From the IMG/VR virus record IMGVR_UViG_3300045988_122921: a stretch of DNA of 38,017 nucleotides; one strand, given 5' to 3'. A program made the position numbers and the translations under genes. Below, piece by piece: positions 1,222 to 19,964 of the stretch. The DNA comes from a virus. Every line of letters begins with the position of its first letter. Positions within the stretch are counted from its first letter, which is position 1. The notes below the pieces were generated by a model. The model saw only the letters and a list, made by a program, of their open reading frames with translations. It ran no database searches and was not told the DNA's origin.

Positions 1222-1282
1222 ATCTAGCAACTCCTTTATTCAAATTTCATTGTGGAAATATTATCTAAAAATATTTCTAATC

Positions 1283-5490: not shown

Positions 5491-5664
5491 ATGAGAAAAA
5501 TTTATAACTTAAGAAGAATTGCAGTATTGCTAATCGTATTCGGACTAGGACTGCTAGTAGGCGGAGATTTTAATCCGATTATCCAAAATGTATATATCGG
5601 CTTATTCATCATTTGGACACTGTTTTATGATCTGGCACTTGAAGATAGAGAGGTAAATAAATGA
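5491..5664 (+). CDS. Small membrane protein, 57 aa (MRKIYNLRRIAVLLIVFGLGLLVGG...)
   Basis: Not in the track. AAGGAG RBS 7 nt upstream, and two hydrophobic segments. Confidence 0.6.
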   Translation: MRKIYNLRRIAVLLIVFGLGLLVGGDFNPIIQNVYIGLFIIWTLFYDLALEDREVNK

Positions 5665-15429: not shown

Positions 15430-15510
15430 AATATGATTATATCATGAGTAAATGTATTTGAAAATACTATCTCATAGTACGTATTGTAAAAAGTTTATTT
15501 AGTAGAAAAT

Positions 15511-15534
15511 AAAAAAAGCCAGATTGCTCCGGCT
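15511..15534 (-). terminator. Minus-strand terminator-like hairpin upstream of the sRNA promoter
   Basis: rc reads AGCCGGAGCAATCTGGCT followed by TTTTTTT. It could insulate the sRNA unit from antisense transcripts. Confidence 0.35.
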
Positions 15535-15585
15535 GTGAGAAATATTTTCGACATAGTTATTATACCACAAAAGGAGCGATTCCAC

Positions 15586-16006: not shown

Positions 16007-16062
16007 TTGGCGGTTTTTTGGCGGAAAGTTGGCGGTTTTTATACGAATTTGAGTGCTAATAT
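16007..16062 (+). promoter_or_regulatory. Three TTGGCGG repeats at exact 11-bp phasing, plus an extended -10 TGCTAATAT
   Basis: TTGGCGG at 16007, 16018 and 16029. TGCTAATAT at 16054-16062. Starts 5 nt after the arpU stop. Confidence 0.5.
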
Positions 16063-16067
16063 AGTAA

Positions 16068-16216
16068 CATCGAAAGTCAAAGAAATGGACACATTACACA
16101 ACACTTTCTGGTTTAGTCACCGTTTGATTTGACTTTCGATGGTCACTTGCAGACATACGTTCTCAATAAAATGAAGTGAGGTGAATAACCTCCTCTTTTT
16201 TCTACAAGTTTGCAAG
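16068..16216 (+). ncRNA. Structured promoter-proximal RNA element, unit 1
   Basis: A perfect 14-bp helix (16068-16081 with 16128-16141) encloses the GTTTAGTCAC motif. GAGG-7nt-CCTC hairpin plus T6 at 16178-16201. A 9-bp outer helix (16145-16153 with 16208-16216). Paralogous to unit 2. Confidence 0.5.
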
Positions 16217-16539: not shown

Positions 16540-16598
16540 AATAAGCAGTGTTCAATTTGCTTCGGCACTGGAATTGGTTGCTTTTAAGTAGCCATTTG

Positions 16599-16668
16599 CT
16601 ACACTTTTTATACCTTTTTTATACACTTTATCTACACTTCATATACCTTCTAAACGGGTTATTATGAT
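16599..16668 (+). promoter_or_regulatory. Five phased (C/A)TAC(A)CTT repeats plus a -10-like TATGAT
   Basis: ACACTT or ACCTT cores begin at 16601, 16613, 16623, 16634 and 16645 (spacing 10-12 bp). TATGAT at 16663-16668 aligns with the unit-1 -10 region. Confidence 0.4.
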
Positions 16669-16674
16669 AGTGTC

Positions 16675-16887
16675 AAAAAAATAAGAAATGCGACACACTT
16701 ACACAAATACATTAACGGAACGATTGCCTACTTATTTTTTTGATTTGAGATTACAAGGAAGTAAAAAAATCTACTTTCTTCGTTTAGTCACTTGTGATCT
16801 CATTTAGATTCTCTCGCAAACCACCAATTATAAAACTAAAGAAGTGAGGTGAATTTCCTCTCTCTTTTTTCTACAGGTTTGCGAGAG
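16675..16887 (+). ncRNA. Structured promoter-proximal RNA element, unit 2
   Basis: Shares AAGAAATG(C)GACACA(Y)TTACACAA, CTTTCT..GTTTAGTCAC, and GAAGTGAGGTGAAT..CCTC..TTTTTTCTACA.GTTTGC with unit 1. Extra nested helices at 16746-16754 with 16794-16802, and 16755-16763 with 16772-16780. A 12-bp outer helix (16811-16822 with 16876-16887). Confidence 0.5.
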
Positions 16888-16896
16888 TTAAGTTTA

Positions 16897-17026
16897 GTCA
16901 CTGTGGCGGAATAGGTAGACGCTCGTACGTGAGATTAGACATTGGAACAACGTATAAGTTCGTATGTAGGGCTTTGGCCCATCGGATAAATCTAATCATG
17001 CAAGGTGCAAATCCTTGCCAGTGACA
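16897..17026 (+). ncRNA. 130-nt tRNA-like RNA: Leu-type D-arm and perfect acceptor and T stems, with the anticodon arm replaced by a ~78-nt structured insert
   Basis: Acceptor GTCACTG/CAGTGAC (7 bp). TG, then GCGG-AATAGGTAG-ACGC as in class II tRNA-Leu. T arm GCAAGG-TGCAAAT-CCTTGC, where G occupies the normally U55 position. Central 7-bp helix GATTAGA/TCTAATC encloses hairpins. No canonical anticodon loop. Confidence 0.5.
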
Positions 17027-17146
17027 TAATCATTTTAGCCGTGAAAGTCTGCGAAAGCTACGTCCTGATGGGAAAACATTCTGACGAGAGTGTGTAAAGG
17101 TTAATTTGATTTATTAGCAATTGCTAGAAGGTAGCTCCTTCTGGTA

Positions 17147-17220
17147 TGGCGTGTAGCTCAATTGGTGAGAGCGGTTGATTTTTAATCAAGTACATGCAGG
17201 TTCGACTCCTGTCCCGCCAA
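17147..17220 (+). tRNA. tRNA-Lys (anticodon UUU), divergent phage copy
   Basis: Cloverleaf TGGCGTG-TA-GCTC-AATTGGTGA-GAGC-G-GTTGA-TTTTTAA-TCAAG-TACAT-GCAGG-TTCGACT-CCTGT-CCCGCCA-A. It has a 6:67 U/C mismatch, a 27:43 G/G mismatch, U32, and no encoded CCA. Confidence 0.75.
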
Positions 17221-17280
17221 TAAGTGGCAAAACCACTTAAATAAATTAGGAAACGTCAATAGATGTTTCTTTCCTTCACG

Positions 17281-17311
17281 AGAGGCATCCGCTTGCGGGA
17301 TGTCTCTTTTT
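17281..17311 (+). terminator. Rho-independent terminator closing the tRNA unit
   Basis: 10-bp stem AGAGGCATCC/GGATGTCTCT (one G-U) followed by TTTTT. Confidence 0.7.
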
Positions 17312-17317
17312 ACATAC

Positions 17318-17417
17318 AAAAAAACCACCAGTGAAATTAATCATGGGTGGTTAGGTAGCTAGTACGATATGAGGAATTTCATGTGCAAGAAATTTTCTAA
17401 GGTATGTTGCTACCCGT
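17318..17417 (-). ncRNA. Candidate ~100-nt sRNA A (minus strand)
   Basis: Extended -10 TGCTATAAT (rc 17424-17432). Body closed by GGUAGC/GCUACC. Then UAACC, a hairpin (17323-17352) and U7. Confidence 0.5.
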
Positions 17418-17465
17418 GAATAAATTATAGCAAATCATTCATTAATTGTCTTGTCAGAAGCACAT

Positions 17466-17575
17466 AAAAAACCGCTAGTGGTGACATACTAGCGGTTAGG
17501 TAGCAAATTATGTGTCTTTTCATTGAATTATGAATTACATAAGGTGTTGATTAAAAATAAAAGGAGTTGCTACCT
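17466..17575 (-). ncRNA. Candidate ~110-nt sRNA B (minus strand), paralogue of A
   Basis: Extended -10 TGTTATAAT (rc 17582-17590). A 9-11-bp closing helix (17496-17506 with 17567-17577). A 9-bp terminator stem ACCGCTAGT/ACTAGCGGT (17471-17496) plus a U-run. Contains a CUCCUUUU tract. Confidence 0.5.
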
Positions 17576-17655
17576 AATAAAATTATAACAAATAAGAATG
17601 AAGAATAAAAGAGATTGCCTTGATGGCTTCTTTTTTTGTTTGGAGGGAATGAAGG

Positions 17656-17880
17656 ATGGATAATTATTGGTACATATCTCTGAACCACCATTATCCGAAA
17701 CCCATGAAAAACCAACATAAACGGGTAGTAATGTCGGTGCAGATTAAGAAAGACTATTCCATCATTGAGATGACACGAGAAGCTACACCACAAGAAATTG
17801 ACTATTGCAAGTTGCTATATTGCGGTCATGGGTGTTGGAATGACAAGCATGTACAAGAGAATATAAGTAAATACAGATGA
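17656..17880 (+). CDS. Hypothetical protein, 74 aa, Cys-rich C-terminus
   Basis: Track ORF with a GGAGGG RBS. First ORF of the late operon. Confidence 0.55.
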   Translation: MDNYWYISLNHHYPKPMKNQHKRVVMSVQIKKDYSIIEMTREATPQEIDYCKLLYCGHGCWNDKHVQENISKYR

Positions 17881-17920: not shown

Positions 17921-18685
17921 ATGTCTAGAGCTAGAAATCCAAATAGAGAAAAGGCAAAACATCTTTGGTTAGAATCTGAAGGAACAAAGAAATTAAAAGA
18001 TATCGCAATTGAATTAGGTGTTACAGATTCCACTATTAGAAAATGGAAATCTCAAGATAAGTGGGACACTACAATGAAACGGAGCGCTCCGATTGAAACG
18101 GAACGTTACGATACGCTTAAAGGCAATAAAAATGCCCAAGGGAATAAAGGCGGTTCGCCCCCTAAGGGGAATAAGAACGCAGTTAAACACGGAATTTTTG
18201 CTAAGTGGATGCCGGAAGAGACAATAGAAATAATGGAGACCGTTTCCCAATCAGAACCGGCAGATATTCTTTGGAATAACATTATGATTCAATATACAGC
18301 CATTATCCGATCACAACAGATTATGTACGTCAATGATGTCGGAGATATCTCAAAAGAGGAGTCGGGTTGGTCATCTGGCGAAAGTGGAAGCAGTTCTACT
18401 ATGCAAGTTCAATACGCGTGGGATAAACAAGCTAACTTTTTAGCCGCCCAATCTCGAGCAATGGGAACACTATCAAATTTAATTAAACAATTTGTAGCTA
18501 TCGCAGACGAAGCCGATGAACGAAGAGCAAAATTAAGCTTGATAACTGCGAAGATGGAAAAAACACAAGCAGAAGCGAAAATACTTACGAATCAGGCCGA
18601 TAAGTTAACTGCTGGAGGCAAAGCGAACGAATTGTTAGAAGCTTTGCTCAACGTTAAATCACGAGGTGTGAACAATGACAATTAA
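17921..18685 (+). CDS. terS: Terminase small subunit
   Basis: N-terminal HTH (KLKDIAIELGVTDSTIRKWKSQDKW), located directly upstream of terL and overlapping it. Confidence 0.85.
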   Translation: MSRARNPNREKAKHLWLESEGTKKLKDIAIELGVTDSTIRKWKSQDKWDTTMKRSAPIETERYDTLKGNKNAQGNKGGSPPKGNKNAVKHGIFAKWMPEETIEIMETVSQSEPADILWNNIMIQYTAIIRSQQIMYVNDVGDISKEESGWSSGESGSSSTMQVQYAWDKQANFLAAQSRAMGTLSNLIKQFVAIADEADERRAKLSLITAKMEKTQAEAKILTNQADKLTAGGKANELLEALLNVKSRGVNNDN

Positions 18686-19964
18686 TTTTAGTGATAAGCA
18701 AGCAGCGAATATTAATTTCAACACAAGCAAAGTGACCTTTGAATTAAACGAAGGTACTCCTCGTAGCGGAAAAACCACCAGTGATATATTTAAAATGGCA
18801 GACTTCTATTTACGCTCACCAGACCAGAACCATCTTGTGACTGCTTATAATCAAGAACAAGCTTTCCGAATGTTTATGGACGGTGACGGTTTAGGCTTAA
18901 TGCATATCTTTGATGGTGTTTCAGATATTCGACATGATGAGCATGGGGACCATTTGCTTTTATATGCACCTAACGGAGAAAAAAAGATTTATTACAAAGG
19001 CGGCGGCAAAATCAATTCGGTTGGTGCTATTACGGGTATGTCGTTAGGCTCAGTTACTTTCTTAGAATTTAACTTGCTGCATAAAGATTTCATTAATGAG
19101 TGCTTTAGACGTACTTTTGCTGCAGAATGGCGCTATCATTTAGGCGAACAGAATCCGCCAGCACCGAATCACCCTAATTTAGAATTGTTAGAACGTTTTG
19201 AGAAATCAGGACGTTTTTTATTTCGTCATTGGACACCAGATGATAATCCAATCTTAAGTGAATCAAGAAAGCAGCAGTTATACGATGAGTTATCAAGTAG
19301 CGAATATCTTTTAGAACGTGACTGGTATGGTCATAGAGTGCTACCACAAGGTGTTATTTACTCGATGTTCGGTAAGAACAACAAGGCAACCGAAATAAAA
19401 GGAAACATCATTGAAACGTTTTTTACTGCTGATGGTGGCCAAGCTGATGCAACTACCTGTGCATTTTGGGTTGTCACCTTCTATGCTGGGAAATTTTATC
19501 TGTATCGTTTAGCAAACTACTATCATAGCGGAACGGATACGGGAGAAACAAAAGCGATGTCAATTTATGCAAAAGAGATTAAACAGTTTGTTGAGTGGTG
19601 TTATACAAAATGGAACCATTTGCCACACTGGAATTATTTCTTTGTCGATCCTGCCTGTAAAACGTTACGTTCTGAGCTTGACTTAATAGGGATTATTACA
19701 GATAAAGCTGATAACAATAGCTCCGATAAAGTTTCAAGTAATGGTTTAAAGATAGAGGTTGGAATAGAACGACTACAAAACACCATGATAAGTGGCCAAT
19801 TTATAGTTTTAGAATGTGGAGAAGAATTTGACCACTATAATTTTGAAAAAGAAATCTCTATGTATGTGAGAAATGATAATGGATTGCCCGTAGATAAATA
19901 TAATCATGCACTTGATGAAGCAAGGTATGGTAATAATTACTTTTATAAAACCTATATCGCCTAG
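18675..19964 (+). CDS. terL: Terminase large subunit (PBSX/XtmB-type, headful)
   Basis: Walker A EGTPRSGKTT, a C-terminal nuclease-type acidic motif (HALDEARYG), and 429 aa. Confidence 0.92.
   Translation: MTINFSDKQAANINFNTSKVTFELNEGTPRSGKTTSDIFKMADFYLRSPDQNHLVTAYNQEQAFRMFMDGDGLGLMHIFDGVSDIRHDEHGDHLLLYAPNGEKKIYYKGGGKINSVGAITGMSLGSVTFLEFNLLHKDFINECFRRTFAAEWRYHLGEQNPPAPNHPNLELLERFEKSGRFLFRHWTPDDNPILSESRKQQLYDELSSSEYLLERDWYGHRVLPQGVIYSMFGKNNKATEIKGNIIETFFTADGGQADATTCAFWVVTFYAGKFYLYRLANYYHSGTDTGETKAMSIYAKEIKQFVEWCYTKWNHLPHWNYFFVDPACKTLRSELDLIGIITDKADNNSSDKVSSNGLKIEVGIERLQNTMISGQFIVLECGEEFDHYNFEKEISMYVRNDNGLPVDKYNHALDEARYGNNYFYKTYIA

Follow-up and report, generated by a model that had tools for sequence, protein, structure and literature searches.

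The 38,017-nucleotide (nt) stretch analysed here (IMG/VR virus record IMGVR_UViG_3300045988_122921; hereafter the window) belongs to a temperate phage of Enterococcus faecalis, of the phiFL2A/Phifelvirus type. Two tandem units, A and B (17318-17590), occupy the minus strand of the slot that separates its tRNA block from the first late genes. These are very probably functional genes for non-coding small RNAs (sRNAs) of ~100 and ~110 nt, respectively, members of a family of sibling sRNAs found in Phifelvirus-like elements of E. faecalis. The best overall explanation of the results is that these siblings are expressed in the lysogen, where they would pair and interfere with the leader of the late transcript; we put the probability of this at about 0.45. 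The family is new and unannotated, although its kind, that of sibling sRNAs and phage antisense RNAs, is familiar.

The initial annotation had described two tandem, paralogous sRNA genes on the minus strand, running toward the tRNA unit and away from terS. This description is borne out by family membership, covariation, conserved promoters and the 5' ends of homologues. Each part that it listed is also present, at the coordinates given. Both units have an extended -10 element on the minus strand, TGTTATAAT in B and TGCTATAAT in A, and each ends in a strong hairpin with 6-7 U residues behind it (Table 1). The sequence CUAACC, said to be shared, is present in both as GCUACCUAACC. Read along the RNA, unit B comprises TGTTATAAT, seven bases, GGUAGCAAC, a 60-nt body, UUUGCUACC-UAACC, a hairpin of 9-10 base pairs (bp) and U6; unit A comprises AAGACA-17-TG-C-TATAAT, GGGUAGCAAC, a 47-nt body, GCUACC-UAACC, a hairpin and U7. 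Each body was proposed to be closed by GGUAGC(AA)...(UU)GCUACC. The core of this helix exists in both units but the (AA)...(UU) extension only in B, the closing helices being UAGGUAGCAA/UUUGCUACCUA (10 bp) in B and GGGUAGC/GCUACCU (7 bp) in A. Consensus scans independently flagged the promoter of unit A and the terminator of unit B. An alignment of A and B gives 76% column identity, with compensatory changes between the two terminator stems. Part of the unit A terminator (17320-17334) also recurs as a 15-nt exact direct repeat, AAAAACCACCAGTGA, on the plus strand within terL (18770-18784); 5 of 500 shuffles reach 15 nt, and the repeat could be a recombination scar or chance.

Relatives were reached by a pattern scan of IMG/VR, through the neighbouring 74-amino-acid (aa) open reading frame (ORF), ORF74, and with covariance models. 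The covariance model of the family (R1) scores unit B at 105.6 bits and unit A at 66.1 bits. At E < 1e-7 it detects 62 units in 27 loci plus the window; V583-type contigs add three units, and phages IME197 and phiFL1A two each. A second model (R2) was built only from the paralogue types of other phages, with no A or B sequence. Even so, B leads its hits over both strands of the window with 73.1 bits (E = 1.3e-14), A follows with 36.6 bits (E = 2.8e-6), and 16 bits is the best score beyond these two. Since R2 lacks A and B yet recovers both, the two units are members on independent evidence, and the earlier argument that a twofold occurrence of the same architecture exceeds chance is upheld.

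The arrays are hosted by E. faecalis Phifelvirus-like prophages and phages, including V583 prophage pp4 and more than 20 IMG/VR contigs. Searches by blastn with types other than A and B of the window located units in phiFL1A/B/C, SEsuP-1, IME197 and Efs 1-1-1. Every unit is unannotated, and every array lies in the slot before the late genes, opposite to late transcription. About ten paralogue types can be told apart (A, A', B, C, D, E, F1, F2, G and H), with one to four copies per array, the window having two. Array make-ups include four tandem units (B, A, C, D), B with a divergent A and C, and a single unit E. The family scaffold runs from a GGUAGC arm to a GCUACC arm, then through a UA(N)CC linker into an intrinsic terminator. 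While promoter, 5' helix and terminator stay conserved, no alignment is possible between the bodies of different types. Upstream DNA is available for 17 units, and in each of them an extended -10 element (TGnTAnAAT or TGnTAnACT) ends 4-7 nt ahead of model position 1; the distance from TGnTATAAT to the GG of the 5' arm is 6-9 nt in A, B and 17/17 of these paralogues. The pairs of promoter and terminator, whose absence from related prophages was to have counted against the sRNA proposal, are thus conserved wherever units occur.

Beyond these hosts the searches were negative. A blastn search with 17300-17660 gave no match in INPHARED phages or PLSDB plasmids, and an exact-pattern scan of species-representative genomes returned 0 hits. 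Relatives of ORF74 in E. mundtii, E. lactis and E. thailandicus are accompanied by no unit. A hairpin of 17.9 bits beside a tRNA in locus L144 was rejected as a unit, having neither promoter nor terminator. In Rfam 15 only two tRNAs of the window pass the gathering threshold; at E <= 10 the best overlaps are EF3314_EF3315 (14.4 bits, threshold 100) and MicX (12.1 bits, threshold 75). As no Rfam family is matched, we regard this as a new family of a known kind. A tRNA-like origin of the units was rejected, ARAGORN and Rfam being negative and T- or D-arm sequences lacking. We noticed no likeness to the E. faecalis type II-A CRISPR repeat, an impression that serves as a lead only.

Several tests argue that the units function as structured RNA. 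In a dinucleotide-shuffle test the fold z-scores are -6.2 for B and -5.2 for A, with 0/200 shuffles equal. The reverse strands of both units also fold well, as complements must; the RNA strand is set by the U-runs and -10 boxes and not by folding: a GC-rich hairpin followed by 6-7 U is found on the minus strand only. The two helices were scored over 23 distinct sequences: 95.9% of their cells are standard pairs, and 9 of the 17 pairs vary on both sides. None of 500 shuffles reaches the observed values, and slid partners drop to 25-51% paired. The alignment used for these figures was fitted to the model, but RNAalifold applied to a plain MAFFT alignment returns the same two helices. Most types close with GGUAGC/GCUACC; type C uses GGCAG/CUGCC instead and type G GACAGC/GCUGUC. 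Compensatory changes supporting a conserved secondary structure are seen in both helices, the terminator stem included.

These features bear on the idea that the units are repeats acting as DNA, for instance packaging sites near terS, recombination boundaries or a miniature inverted-repeat element, their RNA features being incidental. Inverted GGTAGC/GCTACC arms do surround each unit just upstream of terS, and arrays do behave as swappable cassettes. Yet every paralogue keeps its strand-specific U-runs and TGn-10 boxes, covariation of the RNA type extends to the terminator stems, and dispersed copies are found neither elsewhere in the window (with R2) nor outside the slot in 2.9 million viral contigs. 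Finally, three homologous units have primary transcription start sites (TSSs) at the predicted first base (see below). We therefore reject a packaging site or miniature inverted-repeat element and consider any such DNA-level role very improbable.

Coding capacity appears to be lacking too. In agreement with the initial annotation, which saw no ORF preceded by a ribosome-binding site (RBS), no ORF in either unit has a Shine-Dalgarno (SD) sequence; the sole ORF (32 aa, 17523..17425) crosses a terminator. The closing of 5' end onto 3' end recalls the fold-back locks of type I toxin mRNAs, and ATGAAA occurs in both bodies, so that type I toxin-antitoxin or small-peptide genes might be suspected within the units. 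However, in addition to the shortcomings of the 32-aa ORF, unit A would give a peptide of just 7 aa, the ATG is missing from the A variant of locus L007 and from other types, and there is no overlapping partner transcript. We judge genes of this sort to be the least probable of all the readings considered. A type I system was separately rejected for want of a small hydrophobic toxin ORF on either strand of 17318-17590. A type III (ToxI-like) system was likewise rejected: the units are ~150 bp apart, diverged and each equipped with promoter and terminator, and the window has no downstream protein gene on the same strand.

Published data from strain V583 show that homologous units are transcribed. 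Among the TSSs mapped in this lysogen by differential RNA sequencing (dRNA-seq; Michaux et al. 2020; PMC7724050 Table S1) are three orphan primary ones in prophage pp4 (Table 1). Their 51-mers match our locus L093 exactly and place the TSSs at 5561, 5714 and 5889. There the closing helices of units G, H and E begin, to within a base or two, and the distances between the TSSs, 153 and 175 nt, agree as well. The TSS of unit H is comparable in step height to that of rpsF, encoding ribosomal protein S6, and the three sRNA TSSs lie 12- to 300-fold above the late TSS at 1952358 (step height 35). These TSSs thus show homologues being produced in a lysogen during ordinary growth, with starts at the predicted positions. 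Copies A and B of the window are probably transcribed in the same way, to judge from their sequence: the -45..+16 region of unit B, for example, is ~93% identical (by eye) to that of the V583 unit E promoter, whose TSS is among those mapped.

The proposed partner of the sRNAs, the late leader, can be traced by comparison with relatives. ArpU binds TTGGCGG repeats in phiFL2A and the repeats are needed for ArpU-dependent activation of terS (PMC3753634). The V583 TSS at 1952358, a weak one, lies 33 nt past the last ArpU box (PMC7724050 Table S1). Rapid amplification of cDNA ends in phiFL2A gave a single late 5' end, a G 118 nt upstream of terS (L001 3012), which is 2 nt past tRNA-Arg and upstream of a terminator hairpin common to the window. 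The counterpart of window hairpin 17280-17311 falls within the mapped phiFL2A late 5' untranslated region (UTR). With its 5' end upstream of the shared hairpin, late mRNA must arrive from upstream and read through it. We infer that late mRNA starts beside arpU, carries the tRNAs in a long leader and passes the terminator hairpin. In the window this leader would extend for ~1.85 kb from the ArpU-dependent promoter to terS, including an ORF, a tRNA-like RNA, tRNA-Lys and several terminator-like hairpins. With the late promoter that far upstream of terS, the leader would have to cross units A and B in antisense before ORF74 and terS are reached. The published terS 'transcription start' of phiFL2A, the G at -118, is also the first G of a GGUAGC-AUA-GCUAC hairpin (L001 3010-3025), a situation seen in 14 other loci. 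Rather than a promoter start, it is probably a processed end that arises when the tRNA 3' end is matured and that the hairpin then protects.

A mechanism can be proposed on this basis. Sigma-A RNA polymerase, recognising the extended -10, would start each RNA at the first base of its 5'-terminal helix, and that helix together with the terminator would protect the product from 5' and 3' exonucleases. The sRNAs would be perfectly complementary to ~270 nt of the late leader, a complementarity that is guaranteed by the position of the array. In the lysogen they would far outnumber a leaky late transcript. The convergent sRNA promoters would moreover bring about collisions with polymerases that pass the terminator of the tRNA unit, and sRNA-leader duplexes would be substrates for RNase III, so that the coding part of the late transcript would be severed from the 5' part. 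Overall, leaky late expression (terminase, morphogenesis, lysis) would be damped and made subject to a threshold or a delay. In its favour, all arrays found are opposite to the late genes, and the combination of conserved promoter, 5' helix and terminator with free bodies is the pattern predicted by a cis-antisense or interference role. V583 has antisense TSSs at arpU itself in the lysogen, so that antisense transcription would be a recurrent theme. Two roles suggested at the outset, a lysogeny-expressed regulator of late transcripts and a roadblock toward terS, would also fit the predicted late promoter upstream of the array. As a function for the sRNAs, antisense control of the late leader remains tentative, though we rank it first.

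A number of observations weigh against this explanation. The array is optional, being absent from phiFL2A, L012 and L014, even though ORF74 in L012 and L014 is 96-99% identical. The slot of L014, with its 96% identical ORF74, holds instead a small plus-strand ORF, that of phiFL2A holds nothing, and in other relatives it is occupied by minus-strand protein genes of unknown function; a Pfam search with the slot cargo proteins of relatives found DUF1508 only. An optional array in a swappable slot suggests an accessory 'moron' cassette and not a core regulatory element. A plus-strand terminator already separates the tRNA unit from the array, and passage of the late transcript across 17318-17590 is extrapolated from phiFL2A and V583. 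A role in cis alone would leave unaccounted for the near-invariant arm sequence, which goes beyond structure, the conserved exposed CUCCUU and the need for several divergent siblings. The V583 transcripts are not in the sRNA list given by the authors of that study (PMC7724050). Lastly, unit H contains a TSS on the opposite strand (V583 1949984; L093 5762, minus strand), in the late sense, with a step height of 788 and an enrichment of >100, 48 nt from the unit H start; a good -10 is lacking there. Either a real internal promoter or an artefact of the very abundant sRNA may account for it.

The exposed motif brings us to a second explanation, in which the units are trans-acting 'moron' sRNAs, cargo for lysogenic conversion. 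Here (A)ACUCCUU and the variable body would occlude the RBSs of host or rival-phage mRNAs, the late-leader slot being merely permissive. That unit B exposes a stretch resembling an anti-SD sequence, as first noted from the sequence, is supported by folding, in which CUCCUUUU is predicted to be unpaired. More generally, (A)ACUCCUU follows directly on the 5' arm and is kept in six of the approximately ten types (B, C', D, E, F1 and G) despite the unalignable bodies, and in nearly all types it is predicted to be unpaired. Multi-copy siblings with CU-rich seeds are typical of trans-acting sRNAs in Firmicutes (LhrC, csRNA, RsaE). The patchy distribution, the variable copy number, the presence of protein-coding accessory genes in the same slot of relatives and the strong expression of unit H in the lysogen all point the same way, and this explanation accounts best for the exposed CUCCUU, the multiplicity of siblings and the moron-like spread. 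Against it, the seed is generic, no target is apparent among the phage's own genes, and duplex energies against all ribosome-binding sites of the window are no better than those of shuffled sRNAs. Action in trans thus seems possible, if somewhat less so than antisense control of the leader; the two are not mutually exclusive.

One candidate target in the window, the longest match within the phage, was considered separately. The integrase RBS (1225-1237, minus strand), UAAAGGAGUUGCUAGAUAUG, has 13 contiguous nt complementary to the conserved 5' end of the family, UAGCAACUCCUUU. However, 23% of dinucleotide shuffles give at least 13 nt, which is chance level. Among the integrase homologues fetched, the match is restricted to the type with 95-99% identity, and none of those contigs bears a unit. 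In phiFL1A, which has units G and H, no comparable match exists at the translation-initiation regions of int or cI. Integrase was therefore rejected as a general target.

A more speculative reading, in our opinion doubtful, would see the units as diversifying RNA weapons. A constant scaffold of 5' helix, anti-SD seed, linker and terminator would present a hypervariable body of 40-65 nt, and prophages would shuffle and stack such cassettes to silence mRNAs of the host or of rival phages, or to titrate a defence factor. Conserved ends, unalignable bodies and variable copy number would agree with such a scheme. The blastn results do not support it: the A/B region has no match in Enterococcus phages, and the other paralogue types match only homologous units, in six GenBank phages, and nothing elsewhere in any phage genome. 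Were it nonetheless true, the family would be the counterpart of a guide-RNA array, but protein-free and with a promoter for each unit.

The near-invariance of the arms could alternatively mean that these are protein-binding or decoy RNAs, the GGUAGC/GCUACC helix, UA(N)CC linker and terminator forming a module that titrates or programs a host or phage protein such as an RNase, a defence sensor or an RNA chaperone. Arms and linker are indeed conserved across types in sequence and not just in structure. GGTAGC is enriched in the window, with 16 copies against 6.2 expected and 0/100 shuffles reaching 16; and a GGUAGC hairpin recurs in late-sense RNA beside the phage tRNAs. Yet no gene for a partner protein lies next to the arrays, types C and G swap the arm sequence by compensatory changes, which favours structure over sequence, and recombination or gene conversion between cassettes could equally conserve the ends. 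We hold a decoy role to be unlikely, slightly more so even than the RNA weapons.

Five of the GGTAGC copies fall within 450 bp (17130-17574), among them the one in the hairpin AGAAGGUAGCUCCUUCU directly before tRNA-Lys, which displays in the sense orientation the motif GGUAGC..UCCUU of the sRNA 5' ends. The initial annotation had singled out a complementarity between unit A and this pre-tRNA-Lys hairpin (AGCUACCU/AGGUAGCU). The pairing match itself is real but does not support a specific target, the element being the family-wide GGUAGC arm motif and buried in the closing helix.

Comparison with characterised systems places the family close to several of them. Like Listeria LhrC1-5 and the streptococcal csRNA/ccn RNAs, it consists of several short paralogues, often in tandem, each with its own promoter and terminator, with CU-rich anti-SD-like single strands and no coding capacity. 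Those RNAs are, however, chromosomal and driven by two-component systems (LisRK and CiaRH, respectively) and lack the 5'-3' closing helix, whereas the present family is phage-borne, with extended -10 promoters that look constitutive. In common with lambda OOP and paQ, P22 sar and P1/P7 c4, the units specify short prophage RNAs opposite a lytic or late transcript that, here, they would overlap, for which action by duplex formation and convergent transcription would be expected, such an effect being a proposal in the present case. The phage antisense RNAs differ in overlapping the coding region or RBS of a regulator, while the present family would overlap a leader that is untranslated and lies far ahead of the first late gene, occurs as one to four divergent copies and is optional among close relatives.

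AgvB, AsxR and StxS of enterohaemorrhagic Escherichia coli, DicF of E. coli and SprD of Staphylococcus aureus are likewise accessory prophage sRNAs, expressed in lysogens and encoded at cargo hot spots, and the hot spot of Stx phages is similarly a late-leader region with phage tRNAs. They have known targets, many of them are Hfq-dependent and they show no sequence relationship to the present family. E. faecalis lacks Hfq. As regards stability, the ermC and aprE leaders and the phage SP82 stabiliser have a helix that begins at the 5' end or 1-2 nt from it, which is also where the helices of the V583 units map, and a GGUAGC hairpin likewise appears to form the processed 5' end of phiFL2A late mRNA. 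Such 5' stabilisers are a feature and not a family, and the present units would, by analogy, be protected from RNase J.

E. faecalis is a major hospital pathogen whose prophages shape its fitness and gene transfer, and to our knowledge almost nothing has been learned of phage-encoded regulatory RNAs in enterococci or in temperate phages of Gram-positive bacteria generally. None of the GenBank phages with members of the present family has them annotated, and V583 showed the family only as 'orphan' TSSs, one of which is among the stronger primary TSSs of the lysogen. If the sRNAs restrain the late genes they would add a layer to the lysis-lysogeny decision, and spontaneous induction and packaging-dependent gene transfer could change accordingly; action in trans would instead make them RNA factors of lysogenic conversion. 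The ArpU-dependent late operon, for its part, appears to have a kilobase-scale leader that is processed at a tRNA and serves as a cargo slot.

Table 1. Units A and B, their surroundings in the window and the TSSs of homologous units in V583 (positions refer to the window unless V583 is named)
Feature	Position	Strand	Basis or remark
ArpU-family late activator	15535/15585-16002	+	phrog_248
ArpU boxes, three TTGGCGG	16007-16035	+	Directly after arpU stop codon; sequence read
Late promoter (predicted)	Just downstream of ArpU boxes; predicted TSS near 16069	+	Homologous V583 TSS 1952358
109-aa ORF	Between arpU and tRNA-Lys	+	In late leader
tRNA-Lys(UUU)	17147-17220	+	ARAGORN and Rfam; inside late leader, convergent with unit A
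Terminator-like hairpin and U-run closing tRNA unit	17280-17311	+	Sequence read; faces unit A terminator
sRNA A, ~95-99 nt	17416..17318	-	Closing helix 17409-17415 with 17353-17359
Unit A terminator	Hairpin 17323-17352, then U-run	-	Sequence read
Unit A promoter, AAGACA-17-TG-n-TATAAT	17424-17452 (extended -10 TGCTATAAT, 17432..17424)	-	Consensus scan, 10/12 matches with TG
sRNA B, ~105-110 nt	17576..17465	-	Predicted TSS 17573-17575, base of closing helix
Unit B intrinsic terminator	Stem-loop 17471-17496, U-run 17465-17470	-	Terminator scan, covarying stem
Unit B 3' arm UUUGCUACCUA, then linker	17497-17506	-	Fold and covariation
Unit B CU-rich anti-SD-like motif CUCCUUUU	17559-17566	-	Predicted unpaired probability ~0.9 or higher
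Unit B 5' arm UAGGUAGCAA	17567-17576	-	Pairs with 17497-17506; minimum free energy structure, paralogue covariation
Unit B promoter, extended -10 TGTTATAAT	17590..17582	-	Sequence read
ORF74 (74 aa)	17656-17880	+	phrog_1202; first late gene, divergent from unit B
terS	17921-18685	+	PF10668, phrog_509; terL next
V583 orphan primary TSS	V583 1949783	+	Step height 840, enrichment 66
V583 orphan primary TSS	V583 1949936	+	Step height 10458, enrichment 62
V583 orphan primary TSS	V583 1950111	+	Step height 442, enrichment >100

In the late leader upstream of the array, the phage tRNA varies among close relatives, being Lys-UUU in the window, Arg-ACG in phiFL2A (L001 2936-3010) and Trp-CCA in V583 pp4 (L093 7753-7824), and a tRNA 3' fragment adjoins the V583 array. 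Phage tRNA-Lys can counter anticodon-nuclease defences. A segment of the form gtgaggtgaat..cctc..ttttttctacaggtttgc, with a terminator-like hairpin in each copy, is duplicated on the plus strand at 16166-16215 and 16845-16885, on either side of the cassette with the 109-aa ORF. As phiFL2A has a single copy of the segment and no 109-aa ORF, the cassette looks inserted. After this ORF, still in the leader, an 11-nt unit (TTTTATACMYT-like) is repeated in four head-to-tail copies (16595-16649, plus strand).

The tRNA-like RNA lies at 16897-17027 on the plus strand. Its fold combines an acceptor stem of 7 bp (GUCACUG/CAGUGAC) with a D-arm-like GCGG..CGC, and its T-arm reads GCAAGG-UGCAAAU-CCUUGC; a branched arm of ~65 nt replaces the anticodon arm. 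Neither ARAGORN, intron mode included, nor Rfam calls it. Over 136 nt it is 98-99% identical to unannotated DNA of 150-kb lytic Enterococcus phages, and its ends recur with other inserts in other loci.

Finally, a further minus-strand mini-gene is apparent near the start of arpU (15510-15567). An extended -10, TGGTATAAT (15567..15559), is followed by a predicted RNA of ~40 nt and a terminator (hairpin 15534-15517, U-run to 15510), and this RNA would be antisense to the arpU 5' UTR. The V583 lysogen also shows antisense TSSs at arpU: TSS 1952877 is at the place equivalent to the mini-gene, and a strong orphan TSS, 1953002, lies nearby.

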